From: a bacterium | GTDB taxonomy: Bacteria > UBA8248 > JACPRG01 > G963555815 | Reading direction: 5' to 3' | Length of the DNA stretch: 64,000 nt | Assembly: GCA_965261595.1 (NCBI GenBank) | Contig: CBDHDG010000006.1 | Coordinates: forward strand, 960,001 to 1,024,000 | Shown: piece by piece, positions 1 through 56,290 of the stretch | Position numbering within the stretch: position 1 is the stretch's first letter | Layout: each line of letters begins with the position of its first letter | The notes under the pieces: model-generated | Databases searched by the model: none | What the model was told of the DNA's origin: nothing | What the model saw: the letters and a program-made list of their open reading frames with translations, nothing else | Made by a program: the position numbers and the translations under genes

Positions 1-1061
1 AGGCCGTCGCGGATTTTATTCCGGTCGGAGGCCAGGTTTTTCGGGTTGTTGGACACACCCGAGGATTCAATCACCTTCGCCAGGATGAGCAGATTCTCAT
101 ACGCCTGGGCGGCGGTGAAGTGGGGGTCCACATCGCCCGACTCCTTCTTGTACTCTTTGTAGAAATGCTTGAACTCGGGCGTCGTGCTGTCGAAGGCCAG
201 GGTCGAGGTGGAATACGTTCCTTCCGTGGCCTTCTGGCCGATCTTGATGTACTGGGCCTGGGAGACGTCGATGCCGCCGTACAGGGCCGACTTCAGCCCT
301 TGTTTGCGGACCTCCCGGGCGATCTTCCCGGCGTCCCCATAGGTCGAGGACATGACAATGCCGTCGGGGTTCTTGGCGCGGATACGGGTCACCTCTCCGC
401 TAAAATCCACGCTGTTGGATTGATGCGCGATCTTATCGACCACCTTCACGCCGAGTCTTTTCAGGATCGCGGGCACGATCCTCGATCCGGTGATCTTCAA
501 GACGGTGATTCGGTTGTCGTACAGGATAGCGGCGGATTTGATGTTGTTGTCTTTCACCCAACGGCTGATACTGAGATTCATCGCCACCGGCGGGAAGATG
601 GAATTGCGGAATCCCCACGGCTTGAGCTTCCCGCGCAGAGGCGGCGACGCCGAAGAAGCGGAGAACATCACGGTTTTCAACTCGTTGGCGATGGGCGATA
701 CGGCCTTGACCTGGTTGCTCAGGAAGGGTCCGATGATGGCCAAAACCTTGTCCTTCTTGGCCAGCTTCCTGAACCCCGCGATGGCCTGATCGTTTTTCAT
801 GTGGGTGTCGAAGAAGATCAGCTCGACGGGAAGACCGCCGATGCCGCCTTTCTTTTTCAGATCTCGCATGGCGACGGCGAGGGCTTCTTTTTGATGCTGT
901 CCGTTATGCTTCAGCGGACCGGTCAACAACGTCAGGACGCCGATCTTGACGGTCTTGCCCTCCAGGGCCGCGCCGGTTCCGGGAATCGCGGCCATCGCCA
1001 GGGCGGCCAGAACCGCCGCCGCCATGCTGATCCATTTCCCTTTGAGTCCGCTTTTCATCAT
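1..1061 (-). CDS. Branched-chain amino acid ABC transporter substrate-binding protein (LivK/LivJ-like), runs off the window start
   Basis: Minus-strand ATG at 1061 after a GGGGGAG RBS. Signal peptide then KTVKIGVLTLLTGPLK...GIGGLPVELIFFDT...VLAIIGP. Divergent from livGFHM. Absent from the ORF track because no stop lies in the window. Confidence 0.85.
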   Translation of the reverse strand, partial: MMKSGLKGKWISMAAAVLAALAMAAIPGTGAALEGKTVKIGVLTLLTGPLKHNGQHQKEALAVAMRDLKKKGGIGGLPVELIFFDTHMKNDQAIAGFRKLAKKDKVLAIIGPFLSNQVKAVSPIANELKTVMFSASSASPPLRGKLKPWGFRNSIFPPVAMNLSISRWVKDNNIKSAAILYDNRITVLKITGSRIVPAILKRLGVKVVDKIAHQSNSVDFSGEVTRIRAKNPDGIVMSSTYGDAGKIAREVRKQGLKSALYGGIDVSQAQYIKIGQKATEGTYSTSTLAFDSTTPEFKHFYKEYKKESGDVDPHFTAAQAYENLLILAKVIESSGVSNNPKNLASDRNKIRDG

Positions 1062-6194: not shown

Positions 6195-9100
6195 TCAATC
6201 CGAAATATCCTCTTCCGGTTGATCGGAGATGGTAGCGCAGGCTTCCAGCGCGATCAACACCCTTTCCAGCATCTCCCGGCGTTCCGACTCCTCCGGCGGC
6301 GCGGGAACCCGGAATGTCCTCGGGTCGAGGAACTTCAGGCCCGGGGTGGCCAGGAATTCCGGCGTCAGCTGATAGGGCCGATCCTCCGGATGGAAGGTGG
6401 CCCATCCATCCGAGACGGTGAGCTTTTCCACGCCGGCCCGGGTGGCGAGGATGCGCAACCGGGCGGTCCCGAACAGGGATTCGGCCTCGGGGGGCATGGC
6501 GCCGAATCGATCGGCCAGGGCGCTCCGGAGCGCTTCGAGCTCGCCGGTGGTCTGCGTATCGGCGATTTCGCGGTAAAGCTCCAGGCGCTGATTCTGTCCC
6601 GGCACATAGTCTTCCGGGAAGGAAGGCCGCACACCCAAGGACAACTCGGGCTCGATTCGCCGGACGGCCCGCTCTCCCTTCACCCCCTCGACCGCTTCTT
6701 CGAGCAGCCGGCAGTAGAGATCGAATCCGACGGCCGCGATGTGGCCCGACTGCTCGGCCCCGATGATGTTGCCCGCTCCCCGGATCTCGAGGTCTCGGGC
6801 GGCCAGACGGAAGCCGGCGCCCAGCTCGCTCAGCTCTTCCAACGCCTTCAGTCTGCTCCGGGCCGTCGGGGTGAGGCTCCGCCCCACCTGCACCAGAAAG
6901 TACGCGAACGCCTGCCGATCCGACCGCCCGACGCGCCCCCGGAGCTGGTAGAGCTGGGCGAGGCCGTACATCTCGGCTCGGTTGACGATGATGGTGTTGG
7001 CATTGGAGATGTCCAGGCCGTTCTCGATGATCGTCGTGCAGAGCAGGACATCGAACTTTCGATTCAGGAATCCCACCATGGCCCCGTGAAGCTGCTTTTC
7101 CCGCATCTGGCCGTGGGCGACCGCCAAGCGCAGCCCCGGGACCAAACGGTGGAGATATTGGGCCGTGGCGTCGATGGTTTCCACGCGGGGATGAACGAAG
7201 AACACCTGCCCCCCCCGCTCCCGCTCCCGGGTCAGGGCCTCCCGGATGACGCGGTCCTCGAACGGACAAACGTAGGTGCGAACGGCCAGCCGGTCGGGGG
7301 GCGGGGTGTCGATGACGCTCAGGTCCCGGATTCCCATCAGGCTCATCTGGAAGGTCCGGGGGATGGGCGTCGCCGTCAGCGTCAACAGATCCACGGTCGC
7401 CCGGAGACCCTTGAGCTTCTCCTTGTGGGCCACGCCGAAGCGCTGCTCTTCATCCACGACGATCAGGCCCAGCTCCCGGAACTTGACGTCGGACTGGAGC
7501 ATCCGGTGCGTCCCGATGAGGATATCCACCTCCCCGGCGGCCAGGCGCTTGAGAACGTCTTTTTGCTCGGCGCGGCTCCGAAACCGGGTCAGGCATTCGA
7601 TAGACATCGGGTAATCGGCCAAACGCTCCTGAAAGGTGACCCGGTGCTGCTCGGCCAGGACGGTCGTCGGCGCCAGGACGCAAACCTGCTTTTTGTCCAT
7701 CACGGCCTTGAAGGCCGCCCGGATGGCCACTTCCGTCTTTCCGTACCCTACGTCTCCGCAGATCAGCCGATCCATCGGACGCGATTTCTCCATGTCCGCG
7801 ATCACATCCTGAATGGCCTGGACCTGACCCGGGGTCTCCTCGAACGGAAAGGAAGCCGCGAACTCCCGGGTCCAGTGATCGTCGGGAGAGAACGTGAACC
7901 CCTCGGCGACCTGACGCCGCGCCGCCAGCTTCATGAGCCCCTGCGCCATGGCCAGGACAGCGGCCCGGGTCTTTTTCTTCGTCTTGGCCCACGCCGCCCC
8001 CCCCAACCGATCAATCCTCGGGGTTCCCTGGCCGGCGCCCATGTATTTTTCAACGAGGTTCAGGTTCTCCATGGGGACGAAGAGCTTGTCTCCGCCCTGG
8101 TACTCGATCACCAGGAACTCCTGCCCTACCCCGGCCAGGCCGATCCGGTCCACGCCCTGATAGATGCCGATTCCGTAATCCCGATGGACGACGTAGTCTC
8201 CCGCCTGGATCTCGTGGAAGGCCGCCTCGAAAGCCTTTCTTCGGGGAGGCGGGGCCGCCCTCCGGCGCACGGGCGTGTAAAAGATCTCTTCTTCCCGAAT
8301 CGCGACGCAATCCAGGTCCTCGCTCTGGAAGCTCTCGGAAAGCCGGCCGACCAGGAGGACCGCATCCGGCTCTTCGGATTCGGAAAAAAACCAGCCGCCG
8401 ACGTCGGGGCCCTCCAGGATGGAGGCCCCCAGCTCGAACTCCCGCAGAATCTGCTGGAGCCTCAGGGCCTGCGTTCGGTGGACGGCCACGATCGCCACCC
8501 GCAGTCCTTTGTCCAGCCAAATCTTCAGTTGGCGCACAAACACCGGAACCCGGCCCTGAAAGGCGCCGGGGCGTCCCGTATTGAGATGGAGGTGCGGTTC
8601 GCCGTCCTGACCTTCGCCCGCTCCCAAGCCGAGGGAGGGAAGGTCGATCACGGGAGAGTCCGGCGCGGCCCGCGCCGTCAGGGCGTCGAGCACCGCTCCC
8701 GGCGGGAGGGAGAAATCCTCAAGGGGAAACGGGACCCCCGCGCGGCCGGCGTCCACGGCCTCCAAGAGCCTTTCCCAATGCGCTTCATCCGCCTCCGGCA
8801 TGGCGTCCGGCTCGGACAGGGCAACCAGGGCGTCGGGCGGCAAGGCCTCCACGGCGGCGATCAGGTCGTCCCGAAGCAGGGGCGCCAGGGTTTCAAACCC
8901 CGGGAAGTGGCCATCCTCCAACAACCGGTCGGCCAGAAGCTCAAACCGGTCCCGTTCACCCGGTTCCCCGGATTCGGCCCAATCCCGCAGCCTCCCGGCC
9001 GCGCGCGTTCGGGCTTCTTCATCGAGGATAACCTCCCGGGCGGGCATGATTTGGACCCGCTCCAGCCGCTCGACCGATCGCTGATCTCCGACCTGGAAGC

Positions 9101-9731
9101 GGCGCAGGGAGAAAACACCGTCCTCGTCGAACTCGATCCGGACGGGAAACTCCGACTGGGGCGAAAATACGTCCACCAGCGATCCGCGAACCGCGTATTC
9201 CCCCTCATCCTCCACCACCGGACTTCGGTGATAACCCGCGCGCAAGAGGTCTTCCAACAGCTCGTCCCGATCCAGGGGATCGCCCCGCTCCAGGTCGATC
9301 GCGGCTGAGAGAATCGCCTGGGGGGGGATCAGCTTTTGCGCCAAGGCGGAAAGCGAGGTCACCGTCAGGAAGGGCTCTCCCTCCGACCAGGCCGAAAGGG
9401 CGGTGAGCCGCGCGCCGACTGTTTTTGGGCTGGGGGAGAGCGGCTCGAGCGGCGCCAGATCCCAGGGGGGGAAGATGAGGACGGGGGGTCCGGCGGGGTC
9501 CTGGAAAAAACAGAGATCCTCATAAAGACGGAGGGCGGCGTCCCCGGTCGGGGTCACGGCCACGATGCCGCACCCGGCGCCGGCCCGGCGCCTCTCGCGC
9601 AGAAGGGACGTCAGGTAAAGCGCGCGCGCCGCGTCGGTCGTGCCGCTGACGCACAGTCGGGAGACGCCGGAAGGAAACCGGGTCCATTCGGACAGACGGG
9701 ACGTCCGGGAGGGTTCGGCCGGGGCCTTCAT
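6195..9731 (-). CDS. mfd: Transcription-repair coupling factor
   Basis: VRGSLVDVF, CarD/TRCF GDYVVH..YGIG, GDVGYGKTEVA, DEEQRFG, QLRGRVGRS, RDLEIRGAG. Start at MKAPAE, overlapping the aroE stop (ATGA). Confidence 0.96.
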   Translation of the reverse strand: MKAPAEPSRTSRLSEWTRFPSGVSRLCVSGTTDAARALYLTSLLRERRRAGAGCGIVAVTPTGDAALRLYEDLCFFQDPAGPPVLIFPPWDLAPLEPLSPSPKTVGARLTALSAWSEGEPFLTVTSLSALAQKLIPPQAILSAAIDLERGDPLDRDELLEDLLRAGYHRSPVVEDEGEYAVRGSLVDVFSPQSEFPVRIEFDEDGVFSLRRFQVGDQRSVERLERVQIMPAREVILDEEARTRAAGRLRDWAESGEPGERDRFELLADRLLEDGHFPGFETLAPLLRDDLIAAVEALPPDALVALSEPDAMPEADEAHWERLLEAVDAGRAGVPFPLEDFSLPPGAVLDALTARAAPDSPVIDLPSLGLGAGEGQDGEPHLHLNTGRPGAFQGRVPVFVRQLKIWLDKGLRVAIVAVHRTQALRLQQILREFELGASILEGPDVGGWFFSESEEPDAVLLVGRLSESFQSEDLDCVAIREEEIFYTPVRRRAAPPPRRKAFEAAFHEIQAGDYVVHRDYGIGIYQGVDRIGLAGVGQEFLVIEYQGGDKLFVPMENLNLVEKYMGAGQGTPRIDRLGGAAWAKTKKKTRAAVLAMAQGLMKLAARRQVAEGFTFSPDDHWTREFAASFPFEETPGQVQAIQDVIADMEKSRPMDRLICGDVGYGKTEVAIRAAFKAVMDKKQVCVLAPTTVLAEQHRVTFQERLADYPMSIECLTRFRSRAEQKDVLKRLAAGEVDILIGTHRMLQSDVKFRELGLIVVDEEQRFGVAHKEKLKGLRATVDLLTLTATPIPRTFQMSLMGIRDLSVIDTPPPDRLAVRTYVCPFEDRVIREALTRERERGGQVFFVHPRVETIDATAQYLHRLVPGLRLAVAHGQMREKQLHGAMVGFLNRKFDVLLCTTIIENGLDISNANTIIVNRAEMYGLAQLYQLRGRVGRSDRQAFAYFLVQVGRSLTPTARSRLKALEELSELGAGFRLAARDLEIRGAGNIIGAEQSGHIAAVGFDLYCRLLEEAVEGVKGERAVRRIEPELSLGVRPSFPEDYVPGQNQRLELYREIADTQTTGELEALRSALADRFGAMPPEAESLFGTARLRILATRAGVEKLTVSDGWATFHPEDRPYQLTPEFLATPGLKFLDPRTFRVPAPPEESERREMLERVLIALEACATISDQPEEDISD

Positions 9732-10612
9732 CCTTTCCCCCCTTCGTCCAGGAGGGCCGCTTCCATCACCTTTCGAACCTTTTCGACCGGAAGCTCCGCA
9801 CCGGTCCAGATCCGGAAGTTTTCCGCCCCCTGAAAAACGAGCATCCCGAGGCCGCCCACCGTTTTTGCTCCCCGGCCGGCGGCGGCCCGAAGAAATGGCG
9901 TCTCCAGGGGCCGATAGACAATGTCCACCACCACTTGGCCGGGGCGCAGACAGCCCGGGTCGAGGGGCGGCGGCCCTTCGGCCTCCCCGTCCCGCCGGAT
10001 CAAACCGAGGGAGGTGCATTGGATGACGGCGTCCGCCATCGTCGCGGCGCTCTCCGCTTCTCCGCCCCTCAGCGGAACGGCCCGGACGTCGACGGAATCG
10101 AACGTCTTTCGGATCCACCCGGCCAGGGTCCGCGCCCGGGACAGGGTGCGGTTGGCAATGATCAGCGCGCGCGCCCCTTGGGCGGCCAGCTCCGAGGCGA
10201 TCCCCCGGGCCGCGCCCCCCGCCCCCAGGAGGAGGAAACGCCCTCCGCGGGGATCCAGGTCCGCCTCCTCCCGTAAAGAGCGGACGAAACCGGCGCCGTC
10301 GGTGTTGTGGCCGACGAGTCGATCACCCTCCCGAAAGACCAGGTTCACCGCGCCGATGCGCCGGGCGGCCTCGGTCAGCTCGTCCAGGTGGCCGATGACC
10401 GCTTCCTTGTGGGGGATGGTGAGTGCGACTCCGTGGATTCCCAGCGCGCGAATCCCGAGGAAGGCATCGCCCAAACGCTCGGGGGGAACCTCGAAAGCCA
10501 AAAATCGGTAGGGAAGGCTCAATTCCGCCAGCGCCGTATCGAACATCAACGGCGAAAGGGAATGCCCCAAAGGAAAACCCATCACCCCCAGGGCGCGCTC
10601 CACGGATGGCAT
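9728..10612 (-). CDS. aroE: Shikimate dehydrogenase
   Basis: HSLSP, TIPHK, IGAVN, NTDG.GF, GAGGAAR, DIVYRP..T, GLGMLVFQG. Confidence 0.95.
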   Translation of the reverse strand: MPSVERALGVMGFPLGHSLSPLMFDTALAELSLPYRFLAFEVPPERLGDAFLGIRALGIHGVALTIPHKEAVIGHLDELTEAARRIGAVNLVFREGDRLVGHNTDGAGFVRSLREEADLDPRGGRFLLLGAGGAARGIASELAAQGARALIIANRTLSRARTLAGWIRKTFDSVDVRAVPLRGGEAESAATMADAVIQCTSLGLIRRDGEAEGPPPLDPGCLRPGQVVVDIVYRPLETPFLRAAAGRGAKTVGGLGMLVFQGAENFRIWTGAELPVEKVRKVMEAALLDEGGKG

Positions 10613-10623
10613 CGGTGAGAAGG

Positions 10624-12024
10624 CTACGGCAGGTCGTTCTTGCTGATCAAAAAATCCCGGACGAGATTGCTCTCTGTCTTGGGAAGTGGAACGGACGATC
10701 CGTTGAGCTCGACGACGGTGCTGGTGGCGTTCCCTATCGTCAGAACAAACGTCTTGTTCCCGCTCCAGCGCCGGCTCTCCCCTTCCAGCAGGAAGATCTC
10801 ATCCCGCTGATTTCCGTCCACAATCACGCGCAGCCAGGTGTCCCCCTTGGCCGTGATGTTCAGAACCAGAGGCGACTGCCAGGAGGATGGGGCGGTTTTT
10901 TTCTTGAGGGTGACTTTCACCTCGGCGTTGTCCACAACCTTTTCGGTTACGGCCTCGCCCGCCGAGGCCGCTCGCGCGTCCGGAGGGGGCGGGGAACCGG
11001 ACTTCGGGATCGTCTCCGCCACCGCGGGCGTCGGCCGGCTGTCCCCCTCGGCCGCGGAGGAAGACGGAAGGATCCCGTTCTTCTTCTCGGCCTGGACTTC
11101 GGGGGTCTTCGGGTTCCGGTCCGCTTTTGGCTTGTTGACCTTCACGGCGGTTTTGGCTTCGGAGACCTTCGGAATTCGGTCCGTCTTCGGCCGGTTGATC
11201 TTCGCGGCGGCTCTGGCTTCGGAGGCCTTCGGCCCGGCCGGGTTCACCACCTTCGGAGCGGCCGGACGGCGCGCCTTTCGGGGGACGGCGCCCACGGCCT
11301 TCTCCGCCGGGGGCTTTTCCCCCTGATCCGGCCCGAGCTTCCACCCTTCGACGTAGAAATAATATCCCACGCCCAGCACCAGAAGGAAGAACGCCGCGGC
11401 GGGGATCCGTGTGCGCAAAGCACGCCGGGACTCCGTGAGCCGGGCGCTCCATTCCGGGAAGATAAAATCGGCCTCTTCCTCAGCTTGCTGGGCGGGGGGA
11501 TGGAACCGGGAGAGAAGGTCATCCGCACTGAGACCGATTTCCGCCGCCAGTATTTTCAGGAACCCCCGGACGATGGGCGTATGCGGGACGTCTTCATATC
11601 GGTCCTCTTCGAGCGCCGATATGATCCGCCCTTTGATCTTGGTGGTGGAAGCCAACTGATCGATGGTGATTCCCGCCGCTTCCCGATGTCGCCGCAGGTA
11701 TTCGCCCAGCGGTTCAGGGGCGGGTGAATCGGCTTCCTCCGTGGAGGGGGGGAGGGGGACATCCTCATCCGGCGCTTTTTCCGTCTGTGAATCCGGGAAA
11801 GACGCGTCCCCCACCGGAGTGAACAGCTCTCCGGGAAACTCATCGTCCAACTTCCCCGAATCCTCATCGGAGACTTCAAGACCCGTCAAACCAGGCTGAA
11901 TCCTATCCGAATAAGCCCCGCTCGAAACATCGGCCGAGGTCTCCCGCGGGGTCTCTTCCGGCGATTGGCCGTTCTGAGCGCCCGTGTCGGATTGAGAATT
12001 CAGATGCTCATCCATGTCACTCAT
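10624..12024 (-). CDS. RodZ-like protein (HTH, TM helix, DUF4115-like C-terminus)
   Basis: LGEYLRRHRE..GITIDQLASTTKI..RIISALEE HTH, one TM helix, Pro/Lys-rich linker, C-terminal TWLRVIVDG...IGNA...NG. Confidence 0.8.
   Translation of the reverse strand: MSDMDEHLNSQSDTGAQNGQSPEETPRETSADVSSGAYSDRIQPGLTGLEVSDEDSGKLDDEFPGELFTPVGDASFPDSQTEKAPDEDVPLPPSTEEADSPAPEPLGEYLRRHREAAGITIDQLASTTKIKGRIISALEEDRYEDVPHTPIVRGFLKILAAEIGLSADDLLSRFHPPAQQAEEEADFIFPEWSARLTESRRALRTRIPAAAFFLLVLGVGYYFYVEGWKLGPDQGEKPPAEKAVGAVPRKARRPAAPKVVNPAGPKASEARAAAKINRPKTDRIPKVSEAKTAVKVNKPKADRNPKTPEVQAEKKNGILPSSSAAEGDSRPTPAVAETIPKSGSPPPPDARAASAGEAVTEKVVDNAEVKVTLKKKTAPSSWQSPLVLNITAKGDTWLRVIVDGNQRDEIFLLEGESRRWSGNKTFVLTIGNATSTVVELNGSSVPLPKTESNLVRDFLISKNDLP
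11098..11232 (-). repeat. Imperfect 60-bp (20-aa) tandem repeat in the RodZ-like linker
   Basis: PKASEARAAAKINRPKTDRI / PKVSEAKTAVKVNKPKADRN / PKTPEV; the DNA lines at 11101, 11161 and 11221 align. Confidence 0.75.
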
Positions 12025-12273
12025 CCATCCACCTTCCCATTCGCCCGAAAGGAGACTGGCCCCCCCTACGGGCAAGCAGATCCCCTGATAAGTCGCGCCA
12101 CCCTTTTCTACAACGAAAAATGTACTACACTTGCAAAAGGAATGTCCAATAAACTAATCACTTAACTCTATATGACGCCTCCGGCCCCACACTTCAATCC
12201 TTCCGGAAAATTCAACGTAATTTTTACATATTGAATATTCGGGACCGTGAATGGCGGACCATCTAAAATTCCA

Positions 12274-12305
12274 TTGACTCCGTACCCGACTCCGGGGATT
12301 ATCTT
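12274..12305 (+). promoter_or_regulatory. MerR-type promoter/operator (merOP-like)
   Basis: TTGACT-CCGTACCCGACTCCGGGGAT-TATCTT. The -35 box and left half-site match Tn21/Tn501 PmerT (TTGACTCCGTAC). Long 19-20 bp spacer with an imperfect CCGTAC-N4-CTCCGG dyad. Confidence 0.85.
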
Positions 12306-12366
12306 GACGATCAGCCTTTGACCACGCCGATCGGCGACACGCCTTCTCCCCTAGGAGCTGAGGATA

Positions 12367-12612
12367 ATGGAACAGAAAGAGGTTACCCTATACACATCGA
12401 GCTTGTGAGCGTCTTGCAGAGGCGTGAAAGAGTTTCTTTCACATCACAGCATTCCCTACCAGGAGCACTTGATCGACCAAGACCAGGAAGCGATGAACAC
12501 CTTGGTTGAGAAAACCGGACGCAAAGCCACTCCCGTGCTTCTCATTGGCGAGGAAACCGTGGTGGGCTTTGACCGTCGAAAAATCTCGGACCTTTTGGAG
12601 ATTGGTCGATGA
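12367..12612 (+). CDS. Glutaredoxin/NrdH-like predicted selenoprotein (UxxC)
   Basis: MEQKEVTLYTSSL-U-ASC-RGVKEFL...TGRKATPVLLIG..VVGFD. In-frame TGA at 12406-12408 replaces the first Cys of CxxC. RBS present; SECIS-like hairpin follows. Confidence 0.88.
12424..12442 (+). promoter_or_regulatory. Candidate bacterial SECIS element
   Basis: Perfect 8-bp stem GTGAAAGA-GTT-TCTTTCAC starting 15 nt after the TGA; loop begins with G. Confidence 0.7.
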
Positions 12613-12968
12613 ACGCTTCAGAGCGAAGGCTCCGCTGCCCTGGCTGCGAAATGGACATTCCAGTCCCGTGGGACGCCAAGAACGGCGACGTTACTGAGTG
12701 TGAGAACTGCGCGGGTGTTCTGTTTCGCCTCTCCGAACAGGACGGCGGGGACATCCTGCGGCTCGTGCTGCTTGTCTCGTGTCCTTTCTGCGAGGAGACA
12801 ATCCCGGTGGACGATAACACGCCCGAGGGGACCGTCATTCGTCACGGGGGGGCGGAATTTTCGCTGACGAAGGAGTTCGGCGCTTTCTCGCTGGAGCTCG
12901 CCGGCGGCCAAAGACCCGGCCTGGTTCCGGCAGCGGACGCGGACAAAGCGCGAGGGACGGCAGGTTGA
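12609..12968 (+). CDS. Small Cys-rich tandem zinc-ribbon-like protein
   Basis: CPGC...CENC...CPFC...H. First half resembles the LysW-type ribbon but lacks the EDWGE tail. ATGA overlap with the glutaredoxin gene. Confidence 0.7.
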   Translation: MNASERRLRCPGCEMDIPVPWDAKNGDVTECENCAGVLFRLSEQDGGDILRLVLLVSCPFCEETIPVDDNTPEGTVIRHGGAEFSLTKEFGAFSLELAGGQRPGLVPAADADKARGTAG

Positions 12969-13267
12969 AGCCGCAAAGATCAATCACGGGAAAAATCATG
13001 CTGGGCGCGGCCTTCTTTCTGTGCCCCTGCCACCTGCCCATCTACCTGGCCCTGTTGGGCGGAACGGCCGCGGGCGCGCTGCTCTCCGAGAACGCGTACA
13101 CCGCCGGGGCCGTCCTGGCCCTCGCGTTCCTCGCGGCGCTCGTTCTGGGGTTGCGCATGCCGGGGAAGAACATTTCCAAGGCCGGGGCCGCCTCGGAGCG
13201 GGACCCATCCGATACCGGAGGGCAACCTCTCCGGCACGGTCGAATCCGGCGGGCGCCCCTTGGATGA
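12965..13267 (+). CDS. merE: MerE-like mercury transporter
   Basis: LCPCHLPIYLALLGGTAAGALLSE matches MerE (TCPCHLPIL...AGTTAGAFLGE). Two TM segments. Start could be the ATG at 12998. Confidence 0.8.
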   Translation: MKPQRSITGKIMLGAAFFLCPCHLPIYLALLGGTAAGALLSENAYTAGAVLALAFLAALVLGLRMPGKNISKAGAASERDPSDTGGQPLRHGRIRRAPLG

Positions 13268-13279
13268 GGGAGAATCGCG

Positions 13280-13618
13280 TTGCGCTTGAAAGAGGTATTT
13301 CCCGGAGCGGCCGGCGTCCTGACTTCCTTGGGGGCCTCCATCTGCTGCCTCCTCCCGCTCGCGGTGATTTACCTGGGACTCGGAACGGGATCCTTCATGG
13401 CAACGACCATGAAGTACCGCCCCATCGTATTTCCATTGGGGGTGATCGGCCTCGGCGCCGGTTACTTCCTTTACTTCCGGGAGCGAAAACGCTGTCGACG
13501 CGTGGCGTGCAGAATGGCGGGCTCCAAAATCAACCTGGCCTTGCTGGCGGCGGCGACGATCATCATGGCGGGTGTCGTGTGGGCCGATTTCTTCTCGGGC
13601 GTCCTGGCCATGATGTGA
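13280..13618 (+). CDS. merT: MerT-like mercury transporter
   Basis: LGASICCLLPL TM1 Cys pair, YRP, cytoplasmic CRRVAC pair, three TM helices. Confidence 0.82.
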   Translation: MRLKEVFPGAAGVLTSLGASICCLLPLAVIYLGLGTGSFMATTMKYRPIVFPLGVIGLGAGYFLYFRERKRCRRVACRMAGSKINLALLAAATIIMAGVVWADFFSGVLAMM

Positions 13619-13635
13619 CGCAAAAGGGGGAAGCG

Positions 13636-13968
13636 ATGTCAGGCGTGCATCGTCCGTGGAATGGGTTGAAATGTGTGGTTCTGGCGGCCGTCTTCGCCAT
13701 GGCGCTCGGCGGGTGCGAAGGAGACCCGGTTCCATCGGCCGAAGCCGGGGAGCGGGTGACTCTGAGGGTTTCGGGGATGACGTGAGGCGCCTGAGCGGTC
13801 ACCGCGAAACCAGCCTTGGAAAGGCTGGATGGAGTGAGAAAAGCCCGGGTGAGCCTCTCGAAGGGAGAGGCGTACGTCACGTATGACCCAAGCCGGGTCA
13901 CGGTGGCGCAGATGATTGCGGCCATCAACCGCCTGGGGTTCAAAGGCGGCATGAAAGAAGGATCGTAG
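13636..13968 (+). CDS. MerP-like HMA lipoprotein with two predicted selenocysteines (GMT-U-GA-U)
   Basis: Signal peptide with LGGC lipobox, then VTLRVSGMT-TGA(13783)-GGC-GCC-TGA(13792)-AVTAKPALERLDGVRKARVSLSKGEAYVTYDPSRVTVAQMIAAINRLGFK. Read-through gives a complete HMA fold, in the merP position after merT. Confidence 0.88.
13810..13828 (+). promoter_or_regulatory. Candidate bacterial SECIS element
   Basis: Perfect 8-bp stem CCAGCCTT-GGA-AAGGCTGG starting 15 nt after the second TGA; loop begins with G. Confidence 0.72.
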
Positions 13969-14073
13969 GCGGGCCTCGATGGGTCCGCGGAGAGGATTTC
14001 CGCTGATCGGATACGGCCGATGGTCCGGGTGGTCTCCTTCGGCCGGGATACGTTGAGTGGGGGCATGGACAAT

Positions 14074-14301
14074 ATGGAAGATAGAAAGCTGCTTCGCACG
14101 GGAGGCGCGGGGACGGTTGTTGCCGCGATTTGCTGTTTCACGCCGGCCCTCGTCCTGCTGTTCGGGGTGATGGGTCTATCGGCCTGGGTCGGTTGGCTGG
14201 ATTACGTCCTTTGGCCCGCGCTTGTGATATTTGCCGGAATGACGGTCTATGCCCTTATCCGGCTGAGGAAGAAACCATCCGTCCACCGCAAAGGGACCTG
14301 A
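14074..14301 (+). CDS. merF: MerF mercury transporter
   Basis: KLLRTG..GTVVAAICCFTPALVLLFG..GLSA..GWLDYVL.PAL..F matches MerF. Start 14065 or 14074. Confidence 0.88.
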   Translation: MEDRKLLRTGGAGTVVAAICCFTPALVLLFGVMGLSAWVGWLDYVLWPALVIFAGMTVYALIRLRKKPSVHRKGT

Positions 14302-14802
14302 TTCAAAGAAAGGCCGAATAATGAGGTTTTGGTCTTTTCTTCTTTCCATCAAGACACATCTCCCTTCGCCAAGACCAAAACTTTCCTCGCGAGCCGATCA
14401 AACCAATAGTTGAGGGGTCCAAGATGGCTGAGTCCTTGCGTTCCAAAGAGGGTTCCTTGACATTGATTGCCTTGATCGCGGGAGGGGTCTTGCCACTCCT
14501 GATCGTTTTTGGCTCCGCCCGTCTACTGCCCATGCCGACCCTTTTCTGGGCTGTCGGCGTCCCGGCGGAAATCGTTCTTTTTGGGGTTCTGCTCTACGCT
14601 CGTTCGGCCGGACCGGAGCGCTTGTATCGGAGGCTTTGGGTGGGGTGATCGGCGGCGTATTGCTCACCTTGTCATTGGATGCCGTCCGAACCGCAGGGGT
14701 CAACATCGGTTACCTTCCGGATTCCGTGTCGATGTTCGGGCGCTTGGAGTTGACCCGGTTTGGTGGACACCTGATGATTTGGGGGTAAAGGAGGTGTTCA
14801 CG

Positions 14803-15117
14803 ATGCCACAGACTCACCCACGCTATCCAATGGAGTTCCGCTGCCAGATGGTAGAGTTGGTCCGGGCGGGACGCACGCCCGAGGCGCTGGCGCACGAGTT
14901 CGAGCCCTCGGCGCAGACGATCCGCACCTGGGCCCATCAAGCCGACGTTGACGAGGGGCGTCGCAAAGACGGGCTCACGAGCGATGAGCGGGAGGAGTTG
15001 CGCCGACTTCGCCGCGAGAACCGACAGCTCCGCCAGGAGCGGGAGATCTTAGCAAAAGCCGCGGCCTGGTTTGCTCGGGAGACCGATTCGATCCCGTCCG
15101 GATCTACGGGTTCGTGA
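14803..15117 (+). CDS. IS3 transposase OrfA
   Basis: YPMEFRCQMVELV...TIRTW...LRRENRQLRQEREIL.KAAAWFA. Confidence 0.9.
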   Translation: MPQTHPRYPMEFRCQMVELVRAGRTPEALAHEFEPSAQTIRTWAHQADVDEGRRKDGLTSDEREELRRLRRENRQLRQEREILAKAAAWFARETDSIPSGSTGS

Positions 15118-15965
15118 GGGCGAACCAGGCCATGTATCGGACCGCCACCATGTGCCGGGTGCTGGGCGTCTCCTCCAGCGGCTACTACGCGTGGCGCAGG
15201 CGCGCGCCGTGTGCCCGCTCGTGTGCCGATCGGGCGCTCACCAAACGCATTCAGGCGATCCACGAGCGTTCTCGGGGGACTTACGGCGTGCCGCGCGTCC
15301 ATGCCGAGTTGGAGGCTGAGGGAGTGCGTGTGGGCCGCAAGCGCGTCGCCAGGCTGATGCGTGGGGCGGGACTTGCGGGCGTCAGTCGGCGCAAGGGAGC
15401 GCGCACGACGCAGCGCCGGCAGGAGGCGCGGCCGGCCCCTGATCTGGTGGACCGCAACTTCACGGCCGAGGCCCCCGACCGGCTGTGGGTGGCCGACATC
15501 ACCTACGTTCCGACATGGGCGGGGTTTTTGTATCTGGCCGTGGCGCTCGATGCGTTCAGCCGGCGCATCGTGGGGTGGTCGATGGCCACACACCTGCGGG
15601 CCGAGTTGGTGCTCGACGCGCTCGACATGGCGCTGTACAAGCGCCGTCCCCGGGCCGTCATCCACCACTCCGACCAGGGCAGCACGCAGTACACCTCGGT
15701 CGCCTTTGGGCAGCGCTGCCGGCAGGCGGGCGTGCGTCCCTCCATGGGTTCGGTCGGGGACTGCTACGACAACGCGCTGTGTGAGAGCTTTTTCGCCACG
15801 CTGGAGTGCGAGCTCCTCGCTCGCCACAGTTTCCGCACCCGGGCCGAGGCGCGCATGGAGGTGTTCGGGTTCATCGAGGGCTTCTACAACCCGCATCGTC
15901 GGCACTCCTCCATCGACAACCTGTCACCCGTTAACTACGAAAGGAGACAACAACGCACACCCTGA
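15114..15965 (+). CDS. IS3 transposase OrfB (DDE)
   Basis: WVADITY, HHSDQG..QY, DNALCESFF, YNPHRRHS. Confidence 0.93.
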   Translation: MRANQAMYRTATMCRVLGVSSSGYYAWRRRAPCARSCADRALTKRIQAIHERSRGTYGVPRVHAELEAEGVRVGRKRVARLMRGAGLAGVSRRKGARTTQRRQEARPAPDLVDRNFTAEAPDRLWVADITYVPTWAGFLYLAVALDAFSRRIVGWSMATHLRAELVLDALDMALYKRRPRAVIHHSDQGSTQYTSVAFGQRCRQAGVRPSMGSVGDCYDNALCESFFATLECELLARHSFRTRAEARMEVFGFIEGFYNPHRRHSSIDNLSPVNYERRQQRTP

Positions 15966-16289
15966 AAACCCAAGTGCTTAACTCTCCACGAAACCGGGGT
16001 AAGTCCATTGCGTTTGGAGTGGTCTATTCAATCCTTTTTGGAAAGACCCGATGGTGGGGCGCCGTGCTTTATAGCGTCTTCTTTGTAGAGCTTGGCATGA
16101 TGACCCTTCCACCGATGGCGAAAATGATGGGACCTTTCGGCGTCAACAAGTTCGGCACAATTTGGAACGGGATGTTCATAACCACATTGCTCGCTCACGC
16201 CGCGATGGGGGTTGTGCTCGGTGTTGTGATTCAGAAGTGGGGAAAGCACCCCGGTTTGTTTTTCTCAAGTAGAAGCATAGGCGCGTAGT

Positions 16290-16538
16290 GTGGTGCTATC
16301 GGAACTTCATATCGAGGGCATGACGTGACCCAAGTGCGTCAAACGGGTCCGTGAGTCCCTGAAAAAATCCCCGGGAGTTCAGGACGTCCAAGTTTCTTTG
16401 GAGACGGGACGGGCCGTTATTTGGATGAAAAAAGGAAGCCTACCCACAGAGGACCTCCTCGAACAGGTGGTGGAAGCGGCCAAAGGCGCCTTCCATTCCT
16501 ACGTCGCCCGCTGGGTTAAACCCCCCTCTTCGAATTAA
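16290..16538 (+). CDS. Cytoplasmic HMA-domain predicted selenoprotein (GMT-U-PK-C)
   Basis: GTG start; LSELHIEGMT-TGA(16326)-PKCVKRVRESLKKSPGVQDVQVSLETGRAVI... to TAA. A CopZ/NmerA-like fold after read-through. Not in the ORF track. Confidence 0.82.
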
Positions 16539-16687
16539 GCCGCATCCGCTGATTCGGAGAGTCATCAGCACCAAATCCCGAACCCTTTTCGGACTCCACG
16601 CAGATGAGACAATCAGAGAGACCCCGGCTGTCATCCAATGCTCCTCGAAGCCGATCTGGATTTTGAGGGAAGCGTTTGGAGAGCGAC

Positions 16688-18044
16688 ATGGCTTTAAAGT
16701 CATACGACCTCATCGTCATCGGAACGGGGTCTGCGGCCTCTGCGGCAGCATCCGAATGCCGCACCGCCGGGTGGACCGTGGCGGTTATCGATTCCCGTCC
16801 TTACGGGGGGACATGCGCCCTGCGCGGCTGCGACCCCAAGAAGGTGCTCGTCGCCGCGGCCGAGGCCCTCCACTGGGGGCATCGCTTGAGGGGCCGCGGG
16901 GTTCGTCCCGGCGATGCGCGGATCGACTGGCCCGAGTTGATGGACTTCAAGCGCACGTTCACCGAATCCGTGGCGCAGAGCCACGAGCGGTGGTTCGCCG
17001 AAGTCGGGATCGACGGATACCACGGGCGGGCGAAGTTTATCGGCCCCGTCTCTGTTCAAGTCGGCGGCGACGATCTGGAGGCCAAACACGTCTTCATCGC
17101 CTCCGGCGCCATGCCGGCCAGGCTCGGGATCCCGGGAGAAGGGCATCTGATCGCGAGCGAAGACTTCCTTGAGCTGGACGAGCTGCCGGAGCGTATCGTT
17201 TTCGTGGGGGGCGGCTACATCTCCATGGAGTTCGCGACCGTTTCCGTCTGCGCCGGAGCTGAGGTCACCGTCCTTCACCGGGGTCCGCGACTCCTGCGTG
17301 GATTCGATCCCGGCTCGGCGGACTTGGTCGCGGAGGCGGCTCGCGGGAGCGGCATCGACCTGAAGTTGGAGACTCGGGTCGAAAGCATAACAAAGACTGC
17401 CGGCGGCTTTGTCGTTGAGGCATCCTCACCCGCGGGATCGCAAACGGTTGAAGCCGACTTGGTGGTGCACGGCGCCGGTCGGGTGGCTGAGATTGAGGAT
17501 CTCGACCTGGGAGCGGCCGGCGTGGAGCGGGGGAAGCGGGGAGTATTGGTGAACGAGTATCTGCAAAGCACCTCGAATCCGGCGGTCTATGCAGCGGGAG
17601 ACGCGGCGCGAAACGGAAGGACAGCCTCTCACGCCCGTGGCAGGGGTCGAAGGAGGGGTTGTGGCAGCAAATCTATTAAATGGGAACAAAGTTAAGCCTG
17701 ATTACACCGGAACGGCAACAGTGGCATTCACATTGCCGCCGATTGCCGCGGTGGGACTGAGAGAAGATGAAGCCAGGAAGAAGGGGCTCAAGTTTCAGGT
17801 GAATTTCCAGGACACGTCTGGATGGTATTCGACACGGCGCATGGGCGAGAAATACTCGGCATCCAAGGTGTTGGTCGAGGAAGACACGGGGCGGCTGCTC
17901 GGTGCGCACCTCCTCGGGCCGTCTGCGGATGAGCTGATCAACCTCTTTGCGCTTGCCATCCGCCACGGTCTCACCGCCGAGGGTCTAAAGGAGGTGATCT
18001 TCGCGTATCCGACGCACGCGTCTGACGTGGGTTATATGGTCTGA
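16688..18044 (+). pseudogene. Class I pyridine nucleotide-disulfide oxidoreductase (glutathione-reductase-like), frameshifted near 17608
   Basis: YDLIVIGTGSA, GGTCALRGCDPKK, GGGYI, VYAAGD in one frame, then QPLTPVA...GAHLLG...YPTHASD in another. The single extra base may be real or an assembly error. Confidence 0.85.
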
Positions 18045-18100
18045 AGAGCACGCCCTTTGTCCAATTTCGTGATGAGAAAGGGTCATTTGGGAGATGTCAA

Positions 18101-18717
18101 ATGGAAACCTCAAAATTGCCTCAGCTCAGAGAGCATTTCAATCAGGCATGCGATTCCGTGAGGGTTCTTACAATCCTCTCTCCTACCTAACCCGTATGTC
18201 ACTACGGGCATGGAGTTGTCCGGAAGCTCTTCGAGGAGATTGACGCGAATGCGCTCAAGGGTTTTTCAATATGGCTTCCCATCATGGACGGGGACAACGC
18301 CGATGCCGCGAGGGCCGAATCAGAGAATTTCCCGGATGAACGGGTAGAGCACAGTTGGGATTCCGAAGGACAATTTGGCCGGCTCTTTGCGAAGTTTCTC
18401 AATTTGAAAGGTGTCGCGTGGGATGTTCACTTGCTCTACGCGCCGGGTGTCACCTGGGGTGTGGATGAGCCGCCCAAACCTGCATTCTGGATGCACCAAC
18501 TTCCTCCAGTAACGGGAGCCGATGGGAAACTTCTTTGAACCCAGGTAGATTTTCACACGAGCTGATGAATCTCCTTGGAAGAGAGGATCCGCATATGGCT
18601 TGGGATATGGCCTTTATGTTGCACGTTGGCGGTATTGGCGGGGTCATGAGGGAGAGGGCTCAGTCTTCACTGGAAGAGGTCCTCAAGGCCGTCGATCCTA
18701 CGAAGGAAGGACCGTGA
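18101..18717 (+). pseudogene. Thioredoxin-fold protein with TAA at the predicted Sec position (SPT*PVC) and a frameshift near 18535
   Basis: METSKLPQLREHFN...VRVLTILSPT-TAA(18188)-PVCHYG... is in frame with the 18284 ORF (WLPIM...WDVHLLY...W...PAFWMHQL). The C-terminus continues in a shifted frame. Confidence 0.7.
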
Positions 18718-18721
18718 ATCG

Positions 18722-19150
18722 ATGAAGAATTGCCCGGAGGTTCCTATGGAATCCTTGACGATCGAAAAGGTCGCCCGCGGGGCGGGTGTGAACGTCGAGA
18801 CGGTTCGCTACTACGAGCGCAGGGGGCTGATCGAGCGGCCAACCAGCCGGCGGGGGGCTTACCGGGTCTATCCGTCCGAGACCGTCGGCCGCATCCTGAG
18901 CATCAAGCGCGCCCAGCGGCTCGGGTTCTCCCTGGATGAGATCAAAGAGCTGTTGGCCATGCGATCGGACGCCCGGGCCCGGTGCGGCGACGTGCGCGTC
19001 CAGGCCGAGCGGAAGATGGCCGAGATTGAGGAGAAGATCAAGGCCCTGCGGGCCGTGAAGAAATCGCTCGGCAAGCTCGCCGACGCCTGCCGGAGGGAGC
19101 TGCCTGTGACGGAGTGCCCGATTCTGAAAAACCTGAGCGGGGTTTCCTGA
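18722..19150 (+). CDS. merR: MerR-family metal-responsive regulator
   Basis: LTI..VA..AGVNVETVRYYERRGL, IKRAQRLGFSLDEIKELL. Three Cys (RCGD, ACRR, ECPIL) at Hg-MerR-like positions. Start could be 18746. Confidence 0.88.
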   Translation: MKNCPEVPMESLTIEKVARGAGVNVETVRYYERRGLIERPTSRRGAYRVYPSETVGRILSIKRAQRLGFSLDEIKELLAMRSDARARCGDVRVQAERKMAEIEEKIKALRAVKKSLGKLADACRRELPVTECPILKNLSGVS

Positions 19151-19237
19151 AGGTGAGGTGAATCGCTCCCGCCCTCAGGACCCCGTCGCGTCTCCGGCCC
19201 CCCGGCGGCCCGGCCCCCCGGTCGCCCCGCCGCCGAG

Positions 19238-19456
19238 TCAGGATTCTTCACCTTTGGGCAGGAACTGAATCGTCAGAATTTCTCTGTCTTGGCCCGAAAA
19301 TGGGCCGTATCTGTCCACGTAGGGCCTGAGGGGGAAAAAGATGGATTTCCGGCCTTCACATCGGGGTTTCGAGTCGGCAGAATGACCATCCCGGCACGGG
19401 ATCACCTTGATATGGGCCACGAGGGTCCTGATCCAGCGATTTGCCTGTGCCTTCAT
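19238..19456 (-). CDS. Small hypothetical protein (72 aa) downstream of the c-di-GMP riboswitch
   Basis: Strong AAGGAGG RBS before MKAQANRW...; no family recognised. Confidence 0.5.
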   Translation of the reverse strand: MKAQANRWIRTLVAHIKVIPCRDGHSADSKPRCEGRKSIFFPLRPYVDRYGPFSGQDREILTIQFLPKGEES

Positions 19457-19516
19457 TGGGTCCTTCCTCCTTTGCACTCCGGTGGTCGGAGAGGAAGTCC
19501 GCCCCTCTCCTCATTC

Positions 19517-19606
19517 TTCGGCGGGCCGGCTGTCTGGGGGGGAGATGATTTCAGACCCAGACCCGTGCCTTTGCGTCCCGGCCTCTCGACCGGTTTGCCC
19601 TTATCG
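19517..19606 (-). ncRNA. Cyclic di-GMP-I (GEMM-I) riboswitch
   Basis: Minus strand reads GGGCAAACCGGTC-GAGA-GGCCGG-GACGCAAAG-GCACGGGTCT...GACAGCCGGCCCGCCGAA: GNRA tetraloop plus the GEMM consensus blocks. Confidence 0.88.
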
Positions 19607-19781
19607 AAACAAGGGTCACTCAATTCCGCAGGTGCGAATCCTTTCGAGGAATCACGAAAATAATCTATCCATACGATACTTATCGGCGGGAAGGGCGACG
19701 GGCTTTAGCCCGAAATTCCAATCCAAGGAAGGGGCGAACCCTATTTCACCATTTCGGCGATCACGCGGATCGGGTCCGCCT

Positions 19782-21821: not shown

Positions 21822-22418
21822 CGCCCCGAGGTCGTGAGGCGGACGGGCTTTCTTCCGGCCGGGTCTCCGGCTTCAGGAAGACGGCCGTGGGCGCGTTTCG
21901 CCGCGTTGCTCCTTTGCATTTCGCCGCCGCCGTCGCGGGGCGGGAATCTCAACCGCTGAAAATGGGAATGACGCCGTTTGCTCACTGGATTCCGCACGCT
22001 CCGCCGAACTGAATCCTTGCCCGGCCGGCTTGTTGATCGCCGCCTCGGGAGCGACCGCCGACCGGGCCGCCCGAGGCCGACCTGAGGCTCAAAAGGATAC
22101 CCGCAATCATCGGCAAAAGCACGGAGGCGAAGCCGGGCGGAGGGATGGAAACTTCTACACCGATGCCGCATCAAGCTCGCGACAGGAGCCCGCAAAGGAA
22201 ATCGAGAGGGGGTTGATTTGGAAATCCGTAGCGAGGACAGCCACCTTGGGGATTTTCAGCGCCGGGCTAATCCGTGTCTCGGAGATAACTTCACAAACTC
22301 CGAACTTCCTCAAAGAAGGGTGCCACTGGCGGCTTGCCCGCCAGTGCTTCATTTTTTGGGAAATCCAAAGGGCATCCTGGCACCTGCTACTTATTGAAAG
22401 CATTTCTGAGACCCGACA

Positions 22419-51332: not shown

Positions 51333-51514
51333 CTGGCGCTGGGCGAGAGCCTGCCCACGATCGGCAAGCTGCTCGGTCACAGTCAAGTATCAACGACAGC
51401 ACGTTATGCGCACTTGATGCGGGATGCGGAGAAGGAAGCCGCGACCCGGGTGGGCGACAGCATCGGCGCCCACATCGGACCGCGGAGCACCGAGGCGGCA
51501 TGAGGCTGGATGAC

Positions 51515-54252: not shown

Positions 54253-54310
54253 AGGAGTCCCGGCAGCGGAATCGGCCGGACGCTACGAGCATCGACGGAG
54301 GTCTCGGGCG

Positions 54311-56089: not shown

Positions 56090-56290
56090 TGGGGACGCCT
56101 CAAAGGGTGGCCTAGCGTGTCGGAGAAGGAACGTTGGAGTGAAGCCTCGTAGCAAGCTTCGCGGAGCCTCTACCTACGATCAAGGCAAGGCCTCCAGGGT
56201 CGCGCTAAAGGTGAGCCCCGGCGCGGGGCAGGCGGCTCTATCCCAGCGGGCCAACATGAGATGCCTTGGCGGTGTTACTGCGGTGTCTCC

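Follow-up and report, generated by a model that had tools for sequence, protein, structure and literature searches.

A 64,000-nucleotide window of a bacterial genome (assembly GCA_965261595.1, contig CBDHDG010000006.1, positions 960,001 to 1,024,000; "the window" means this whole stretch, and positions are counted from its first letter) includes a cluster of genes related to mercury-resistance (mer) operons. With moderate confidence, the cluster is read as a chromosomal, compositionally mosaic, non-canonical mer-type Hg(II)-resistance operon that is being lost in its host genome. Three of its genes include in-frame TGA codons at the Cys positions of CxxC motifs, and we infer, on good grounds, that selenocysteine (Sec, shown as U in motifs) is inserted there. 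Mercury is the most likely metal, in view of the three conserved Cys residues of the regulator, the MerF score above the cutoff, and two other membrane proteins whose best matches are MerE and MerT models. Four lesions were recognized in the operon: the insertion of an IS3-family insertion sequence (IS), one extra nucleotide in the reductase gene, a TAA codon in the thioredoxin-like (Trx-like) gene, and a one-nucleotide deletion in the same gene. The features of the operon are as follows.

12274..12302, + strand: promoter-like site TTGACT-17 nt-GATTAT (consensus match only)
12367..12612, + strand: glutaredoxin-like (Grx) gene with TGA at 12406-12408 in the motif L-U-A-S-C (PF00462)
12609..12968, + strand: double zinc-ribbon protein with a LysW-like ribbon and six Cys (PF21344, 32.3 bits)
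12965..13267, + strand: MerE-like membrane protein with a CPC motif (PF05052)
13280..13618, + strand: MerT-like membrane protein with CC in the first transmembrane segment and C-x4-C in a loop (MerT/MerTP models best)
13636..13968, + strand: MerP-like HMA protein with the motif GMT-U-GA-U (NF041115)
14020..14301, + strand: MerF (NF033565)
14424..14648, + strand: hydrophobic open reading frame (ORF) of 74 codons, without a family match
14636..16288, + strand: membrane gene in two parts, 14636-14744 and 16008-16288, with weak likeness to DUF6789
14745..16007, + strand: IS3-family insertion sequence of 1263 bp (transposase NF033516, inverted repeats)
16290..16538, + strand: stand-alone cytosolic HMA protein with the motif GMT-U-PK-C and TGA at 16326-16328 (PF00403)
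16676..18044, + strand: tail-less flavin disulfide reductase of the GbsMerA type with C-ALRG-C-D (homolog P0001, PDB 8K40)
18101..18717, + strand: thioredoxin-fold gene of an unnamed family with the motif SPT-x-PV-C (homolog alignment, structure model)
18722..19150, + strand: MerR-family regulator with Cys88, Cys123, and Cys132 (TIGR02051 best match)

The gene series at 12367-19150 is tight and lies entirely on the + strand. Domain matches confirmed the run of co-oriented genes from Grx to MerR that had been described in a first-pass annotation of this DNA. Several gene junctions overlap (ATGA, TTGA) or span just a few bases, consistent with an operon; the stop codon of the Grx gene, for example, overlaps the start of the zinc-ribbon gene (ATGA). 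The cluster is located on the chromosome between rodZ/aroE/mfd and a gene for a DinG-like helicase. The window has a G+C content of 63.8% and includes no N. Across 11800-19200 the G+C content is patchy, from 0.52 to 0.66, and the flanks range from 0.61 to 0.71. The segments of Grx, of the HMA and DUF6789-like genes, and of the Trx-like gene are near 0.54, and a separate dip to 0.46 is seen at 22200-22800.

The four in-frame TGAs start at 12406, 13783, 13792, and 16326 and correspond to L-U-A-S-C, GMT-U-GA-U, and GMT-U-PK-C; the two in the MerP-like gene are at 13783-13785 and 13792-13794. They stand for the first Cys, or both Cys, of CxxC in one Grx domain and two HMA domains. As had been claimed in the first pass, all four coincide with CxxC Cys positions in three genes; the Pfam domain matches run through each of them, with coding sequence on both sides. 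The bare motif U/C-xx-U/C is common, with 128 occurrences in the six frames of the window, and therefore the evidential weight lies in the coincidence with conserved domain Cys residues in three genes. The Grx protein matches PF00462 at residues 6-64 (e-value 1.4e-12), and its nearest named model is of the YruB type (TIGR02196), below the cutoff (73.6 bits vs. 88.55). The MerP-like protein passes the cutoff of NF041115, the UxxU metal-binding (seleno)protein family (98.1 bits vs. 95). Read by eye, its N-terminus resembles a lipoprotein signal (ALGG-C). The HMA U-x-x-C protein matches PF00403 with 50.2 bits (3.4e-13), and CopZ models score best. A homolog search with this protein gave no scoring candidate, and thus it says nothing on the conservation of its TGA.

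A 2026 review of the prokaryotic selenoproteome (PMC13188914), in the part available, tabulates Grx (UxxC, PF00462) and NF041115 (UxxU, two Sec), as well as a putative mercuric transport protein and a cation-transporting ATPase (UxxC, with Sec in HMA domains). The Grx of the window likewise has U at the first position of CxxC. Searched with a filter combining the motif and the G+C content of third codon positions, the window gave only wrong-frame-looking strings as additional selenoprotein candidates. Of the twelve operon genes, four would be missed or cut short at these stop codons by standard gene callers.

Bacterial selenoprotein genes have a selenocysteine insertion sequence (SECIS) hairpin shortly 3' of the UGA. 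Two candidates were found by folding.

12424..12442, + strand: SECIS-like hairpin after the Grx UGA, with an 8-bp stem and the loop GUU at +27..29
13810..13828, + strand: SECIS-like hairpin CCAGCCUU-GGA-AAGGCUGG, with its loop at +27..29 from the second MerP UGA

These two hairpins are identical in geometry: the stem is at +19..26/+30..37 (8 bp), and a triloop starting with G extends from +27. This geometry is seen at 9 of the 1679 TGA sites in the window, and at 35 of the 1679 if a stem of at least 6 bp is accepted, in a test that was defined after seeing both hairpins and that is biased in their favour. The MerP hairpin has shuffle z-scores of -2.2 and -2.5, and the position after the first MerP UGA is in the top 1% of the 1679 TGA sites by minimum free energy (MFE). 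The TAA site of the Trx-like gene is also followed by a hairpin, of 6 bp and in a similar placement. With Rfam, no SECIS family was found in the window at the gathering threshold or at E ≤ 5; only a riboswitch was matched. The SECIS support is strong for the MerP-like gene; the Grx gene has a hairpin of the right geometry but ordinary energy, and for the HMA gene there is no SECIS support.

Another reading of the TGAs is that they are nonsense mutations of Cys codons in a decaying operon, since TGT and TGC are one step from TGA. The operon demonstrably gathers lesions, one of them a TAA at a corresponding Cys site, and the missing SECIS support for the HMA gene would be consistent with this. 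We nevertheless consider it very improbable. All four TGAs are found only at Sec positions of catalogued selenoprotein families, and the operon has many more Cys codons that are unaffected. One of the affected proteins passes the cutoff of a (seleno)protein family model, and two TGA sites share the same rare hairpin geometry. Furthermore, truncated gene calls in several lineages of the Trx-like family suggest a conserved stop, unlike random nonsense. Sec decoding is thus preferred for the TGAs.

The mer-type assignment is carried by the regulator, the transporter genes, and the reductase. MerF is well above its cutoff (NF033565, 93.4 bits vs. 50), and its start is likely to be the ATG at 14065. 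The MerE-like protein matches PF05052 with 35.1 bits (cutoff 22.8) and NF010310 with 41.7 bits (cutoff 80). For the MerT-like protein, every MerT/MerTP model is under its cutoff (PF02411, 23.5 vs. 32.9; 25.1 vs. 150). The regulator scores 128.8 bits with TIGR02051 (cutoff 150.85), and the CueR model is behind at 102.8. Its Cys88, Cys123, and Cys132 are invariant in comparison with MerR proteins from five related loci in other genomes, and the MerR of locus L017 passes TIGR02051.

The reductase gene lies in two frames. The alignment with an intact homolog, P0001, revealed one extra base near 17609. P0001 is 451 residues long and is 97% identical to the N-terminal 312 residues of the window reductase; across the insertion point, it reads ...AAGDAA-ETEGQPLTPVA... 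The insertion is outside of any homopolymer (GCGGCG-C-GAAACG). The best PDB match of P0001 was GbsMerA (8K40/8K41; 407 bits, E = 8.6e-121, 448 residues), and the runners-up were glutathione amide reductase with 224 bits and canonical MerA with 218 bits. P0001 is under all NCBIfam equivalog cutoffs (glutathione reductase, 316.8 vs. 480; MerA TIGR02053, 305 vs. 454). The window reductase starts at the flavin adenine dinucleotide domain and ends with ...SDVGYMV, without NmerA and without the C-terminal Cys pair. GGTCALRGCDPKK, GGGYIS, and AYPTHASD are conserved in its two fragments and in P0001. A Tyr...Ser pair replaces the His-Glu pair of disulfide reductases, as in GbsMerA.

GbsMerA from Gelidibacter salicanalis has Hg(II) reductase activity and raises the Hg tolerance of Escherichia coli, according to the available text of the original report (PMC10587081). 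It lacks both NmerA and the C-terminal Cys-Cys motif, and its functional residues are Cys41/46, Asp47, Tyr174, and Tyr437, with Ser442 replacing the His...Glu pair (PMC10587081). All of these residues are conserved in the window reductase and in P0001. Judged by its sequence, the window reductase is a broken member of this characterised non-canonical MerA type, and Hg(II) reduction is its predicted activity. The flavin disulfide reductase of the first-pass annotation was thus placed in the right family, while its frame is interrupted. The absence of a canonical MerA stands with respect to NmerA and the Cys pair, and yet a MerA of the GbsMerA type is present. At least 8000 database proteins match the reductase. 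Among the matches listed, the closest are 450-451 residues long and bear generic names: dihydrolipoyl dehydrogenase family, NAD(P)/FAD-dependent oxidoreductase, and glutathione reductase. The named top homologs are from metagenome-assembled genomes of Methylomirabilales and Nitrospinota.

A system that is not primarily for mercury is also conceivable. It would handle another soft metal (Cu, Ag, or Cd) or would serve selenol/thiol redox maintenance; the substrate of the flavoenzyme would be, in place of Hg(II), a disulfide or selenylsulfide (in Grx, in the Trx-like protein, or in a low-molecular-weight thiol). The top NCBIfam match of the reductase is the glutathione-disulfide reductase model and its second PDB match is glutathione amide reductase, as described above for P0001; nevertheless, the scores with the glutathione reductase, glutathione amide reductase, and MerA families are far below cutoffs, and the structure of GbsMerA is much the closest (407 vs. 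224 bits), with the shared replacement of the His-Glu pair by Tyr...Ser. Grx and thioredoxin-fold genes are present within the operon and CopZ models are the best matches of the HMA U-x-x-C protein, whereas MerF, MerE, and MerT are mercury-transporter families and the regulator has the three-Cys pattern of MerR and scores best as MerR, ahead of CueR. GbsMerA itself shows moderate activity with Ag and Mn present, according to the available text (PMC10587081), and some relatives of the reductase adjoin a canonical MerA. On balance, a primarily non-mercury function appears distinctly improbable, and the Hg(II)-resistance reading is retained. The earlier proposal of a selenium-based system for Hg or soft metals stands as to its mer-type character, the TGAs at Cys sites, and Hg as the most likely metal, with Sec decoding as a proposal.

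The operon had been taken as complete, and four inactivating lesions are present in this copy. The largest is the IS3 element, whose orfA starts from about 14804 and whose orfB is at 15114-15965; the transposase scores 347 bits with NF033516 (cutoff 160). Its terminal inverted repeats are imperfect, with 22 of 30 bases matching and TGG...CCA ends. When 14745-16007 is deleted in silico, a single open frame of 129 codons is restored. The C-terminal part of this split membrane gene scores 17.5-18.4 bits with DUF6789, under the cutoff of 27.1. What had been listed as one membrane protein is therefore two small ORFs, the second of which is split by the 1263-bp element. A short target-site duplication is usual for the IS3 family. 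At the junctions of this element none was found, since the flanks ...GGGCGCT and TTGCGTT... share no repeat.

A second IS3 copy is located at 52705-53974 on the - strand and is 97.3% identical. It includes indels of 1, 2, 3, and 9 nucleotides that truncate orfB, and thus looks degenerate; the copy within the operon keeps both ORFs. An inversion by recombination between the two copies was considered and dropped, because the flanks give no matching target duplications under that model either.

The Trx-like gene has two lesions. The stop codon at its redox site, 18188-18190, is TAA, and it replaces the first Cys or Sec of SPT-x-PV-C. The motif had been given as *xxC in the first pass; its stop is TAA and not TGA. 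In addition, a one-nucleotide deletion is present at about 18534-18536, in a short T run. The last 60 codons (18532-18714) are in another frame and are 88% identical to the C-terminus of a homolog, P0132. The lesions of the reductase and Trx-like genes make the reductive half of the operon non-functional as written.

The point lesions raise the question of sequence quality. The operon could be intact and functional if the insertion in the reductase gene, the deletion in the Trx-like gene, and perhaps the TAA were sequencing or assembly errors, with the IS insertion being the only real lesion. The deletion is within a short T run, and the frames of the closest relatives are intact at both indel sites. 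The insertion in the reductase gene, however, is not in a homopolymer, the three point lesions are all clustered within 930 bp, and the operon has a structural lesion as well, the IS insertion. Outside the operon, 39 ORFs were scanned and 34 of them have a Pfam match. The large housekeeping genes have open frames and domain matches over their full length, among them Mfd (1307 aa), a DinG-like protein (679 aa), PurH (544 aa), Acs (670 aa), and squalene-hopene cyclase (647 aa). No housekeeping gene is visibly split among the 39 ORFs scanned, in a scan that was not a systematic census of frameshifts. An intact operon is thus considered unlikely, and real decay rather than assembly error is more likely.

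The Trx-like family has no match in Pfam or NCBIfam and none in 72,556 plasmid records, and its homologs form just 22 clusters in 5.8 billion sequences. The structure of P0124, a homolog of 210 residues, was modelled with an alignment of 20 sequences (mean predicted local distance difference test score, pLDDT, 84; predicted template modelling score, pTM, 0.82). Its best PDB matches are DsbF, DsbE, ResA, and TlpA, with target-normalised template modelling scores of up to 0.71. According to this model, the gene encodes a thioredoxin fold, and CxxC starts helix 1 in the homologs. All 12 N-terminally complete clusters have Cys at the position of the TAA (SPT-C-LL-C and variants) and thus C-x-x-C. 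The N-terminus is missing from the other 10 of the 22 clusters, and the five closest to the window (76-90%) are among these. Of these 10, P0122 and P0131 start exactly two residues past the TAA position, as gene callers give at an in-frame stop or Sec codon. This pattern suggests, indirectly, a Sec/Cys family, in which the TGA of the window would have become TAA by one transition.

If the operon were intact, the following pathway could be proposed. A MerR-like sensor would control the operon. A periplasmic, probably lipid-anchored MerP-like protein would bind Hg(II) at the diselenolate U-x-x-U, and the small MerE-, MerT-, and MerF-like inner-membrane importers, with CPC or CC motifs, would carry the metal in. 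The stand-alone cytosolic HMA U-x-x-C protein would then take it over, standing in for the missing NmerA; positionally, its gene just upstream of the reductase is like a detached NmerA. The tail-less flavoenzyme of the GbsMerA type would reduce Hg(II) with NAD(P)H. The Sec-Grx and the thioredoxin-fold protein may keep the selenol and thiol sites reduced, or may resolve Se-Hg and Se-S adducts. Of this scheme, the domain identities, the TGA positions, the kinship of the reductase, the lesions, and the mer context of related reductases are observed, whereas we infer that Sec is inserted, which metal is handled, in which order it is passed on, and what the Grx, Trx-like, and zinc-ribbon proteins do.

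Relatives with intact genes may preserve the working form, namely those that carry the reductase with 97% identity and the Trx-like genes with 81-90% identity. There, a Sec-dependent Hg pathway may have Sec at every soluble hand-over and redox site, including a thioredoxin-fold U-x-x-C family that is uncatalogued, and may feed a tail-less MerA. This extension is put forward tentatively, at rather less than an even chance.

Classical mer operons are composed of merR, merT, merP, and merA, with or without merC, merF, and merE. The operon of the window is similar to those of Tn21 and Tn501 in the three Cys of MerR, in genes of the MerT, MerP, MerF, and MerE types, in a class I flavin disulfide reductase with C-x4-C, and in the presumed logic of capture, import, and reduction. 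It differs in that the regulator gene is co-oriented and comes last, at the 3' end, NmerA and the C-terminal Cys pair are missing from the reductase, and the MerP-like and HMA proteins have Sec codons in place of Cys. In addition, genes for Grx, zinc-ribbon, thioredoxin-fold, and membrane proteins are included, and the location is chromosomal, between rodZ/aroE/mfd and the DinG-like gene.

The first 12 bases of the promoter-like site at 12274 resemble the Tn501 mer promoter. Promoters of the merOP type have a long spacer (19-20 nt) with a 7-4-7 dyad. At the site described earlier as merOP-like, the best fit is TTGACT-17 nt-GATTAT, with 9 of 12 consensus matches, and the long spacer is not apparent; the scan gave five promoter-like sites over 7.7 kb, where 2.2 would be expected. 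Within the spacer, TACCCG-ACTC-CGGGGA at 12283-12298, a 6-4-6 dyad with one mismatch, is the sole inverted repeat. A spacing of 19 nt at 12274 leads to a poor -10 (TTATCT).

With GbsMerA, the window reductase shares the absence of a tail and of NmerA, C-ALRG-C-D, the gate Tyr, and Tyr...Ser, and genes for Hg transport are adjacent in both. The GbsMerA operon consists of genes for ArsR, MerT/P, MerA, and one hypothetical protein, with no selenoproteins reported in the available text (PMC10587081); the window operon differs in being Sec-bearing and in its frameshifted reductase. The review mentioned above (PMC13188914) gives NF041115, whose UxxU is shared by the MerP-like protein, as a family alone, with no operon context in the part available. 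Its multi-selenoprotein operons are grdA-grdB, prdB-prdC, frhA-frhD-hdrA, SAO, and Tso, and no mer-type operon is among them in that part (PMC13188914). SAO, known from Clostridioides difficile and other anaerobes, is described in a preprint (bioRxiv 10.1101/2022.07.06.499078), the available part of which also mentions MerT-family selenoproteins. Like the window operon, SAO is chromosomal and encodes several selenoproteins, members of mercury-related families, and a UxxC protein of the Trx-like kind; it differs in being centred on a MerB-like lyase (SaoL) and an ABC importer (SaoP/A/B/X), according to the same part of that text. In a model scan, Sao families had no match among 15 operon proteins. 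The full-text literature searched yielded no account of a mer operon that encodes several selenoproteins. This agrees with the first-pass annotation, in which individual Sec families were stated to be known and the combined operon was not: NF041115 and Sec-Grx are catalogued. The combination, and possibly the thioredoxin-fold Sec/Cys family, appear to be new.

The reductase clade was surveyed in other genomes. A scan of genome contigs with P0001 gave 28 loci, one of them 81% identical (L001) and the rest 32-58%. Together with two plasmid loci, these 30 loci were searched with the window proteins by tblastn. A MerR-family match was found in the flanks of 15 of the 30 loci, MerP-like in seven, MerT-like in two, MerF in three (L008, L009, and L028), and MerE-like in one (the plasmid locus L029). 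NCBIfam scans covered the ORFs beside the reductase in six loci. In L006, L007, L016, and L024, merR is oriented divergently to merT and/or merP, which are followed by the gene for a GDCCVxC (seleno)protein (NF041374) and then by the reductase gene. In five loci, including the plasmid locus L030, the NF041374 gene is directly upstream of the short reductase gene, with 104-108 bits. The GDCCVxC genes are as follows.

L006, 9754-9981: GDCCVxC (seleno)protein
L007, 9682-9936: GDCCVxC (seleno)protein
L016, 1231-1452: GDCCVxC (seleno)protein
L024, 2258-2485: GDCCVxC (seleno)protein
L030, 3762-4004: GDCCVxC (seleno)protein

The GDCCVxC protein may be a dedicated partner of the short-reductase clade. 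The operons of these five loci are similar to that of the window in the reductase clade (50-58% identity), in a small Cys- or Sec-protein encoded directly upstream, and in MerR, MerT, or MerP neighbours. Their upstream protein is GDCCVxC, whereas that of the window is an HMA domain, and no GDCCVxC-type motif was found in the six frames of the window. They also lack the Grx, Trx-like, zinc-ribbon, MerE, and DUF6789-like genes; the MerE-like match of L029 is at a separate locus. Among plasmid records, 127 have a relative of the reductase at E ≤ 1e-80, every one with less than 60% identity. One of these is located between two mer operons on a plasmid of Acinetobacter lwoffii, and another adjoins a GDCCVxC (seleno)protein gene. 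Relatives of the reductase are also part of mercury or metal islands on plasmids. The short-reductase clade is mer-associated, and a small partner protein with Cys or Sec is typically encoded directly before the reductase; in the window the HMA U-x-x-C gene takes this partner position.

In some loci, a second reductase gene is directly upstream of the short one (L017, L008, L009, and L028). L017 encodes merR, merT, merP, a canonical merA (866 bits, 8488-9918), and then the short reductase. In the Bacillota loci L008 and L009 (8489-9397) and L028 (1292-2200), a second reductase with 31-32% identity follows MerR and a MerF-like ORF.

Several observations weigh against the proposed mer-type, Sec-dependent reading. 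As to the mercury function, the MerR, MerT, and MerE scores are all under curated cutoffs, the promoter spacing is ordinary (17 nt) and the dyad weak, and the second reductase nearby in some loci may hint at an accessory, not Hg-reducing, role of the short enzyme. As to Sec, the energy of the Grx hairpin is ordinary (29th percentile, z -1.1), and the HMA UGA is without a convincing hairpin (MFE at the 82nd percentile, geometry test failed). No tRNA was found in the 64-kb window, and no selA, selB, or selD among the ORFs of it that were scanned. Short contigs could account for part of the missing N-termini in the Trx-like homologs. As to the operon as a unit, none of the 30 loci matches Grx, the zinc-ribbon protein, the 74-codon ORF, the DUF6789-like protein, or the Trx-like protein; the tBLASTn search for syntenic loci with TGA/Cys interchange, suggested in the first pass, thus gave no syntenic locus among them. 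Just one of these loci, L001, has a closely related reductase (81%); its contig is 2 kb long, and the gene downstream of the reductase is not the same as in the window.

That downstream gene, at 1679-2027 of L001, is a Cys-rich ORF with repeated C-x-x-C, unrelated to the Trx-like gene of the window; by eye, it resembles a metal-binding zinc-finger domain. The zinc-ribbon family of the window is rare: a search of 1.84 billion representatives gave only 44 clusters at E ≤ 0.001. Its nearest look-alike clusters in the ESM Atlas are recorded largely from Rokuibacteriota and Methylomirabilota; taken with the sources of the top reductase homologs given above, this is a hint at the lineage of the window and no more. 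On the - strand at 19516-19608, shortly downstream of the operon, a c-di-GMP-I-GGC riboswitch aptamer (RF03167) was found, with 70 bits against a gathering threshold of 59. It is followed by a 79-codon ORF at 19241-19477 on the - strand, without a Pfam match. Toward the right end of the window, mobile-element genes are clustered at 48100-57300 and 60500-62250. They include pieces of Mutator/IS256-type transposases and three tyrosine integrases, followed by SSB, Toprim, and a fragment of a TraI-like relaxase, which suggests an integrated mobile element.

The copy in the window is degenerate, and it is a pointer to the system and a poor experimental model. If the reading is true, a new multi-selenoprotein operon would be placed beside grd, prd, frh-hdr, SAO, and Tso, with natural Se-Hg chemistry in detoxification. 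It would give a role to the uncharacterised UxxU metal-binding protein and possibly to a new thioredoxin-fold family, and a context to the tail-less MerA clade, which has been little studied and is widespread on plasmids. An intact form that works as proposed would mean that bacteria recruit Sec throughout a mercury relay, which would bear on the retention of Sec versus Cys and on environmental Hg-Se antagonism.

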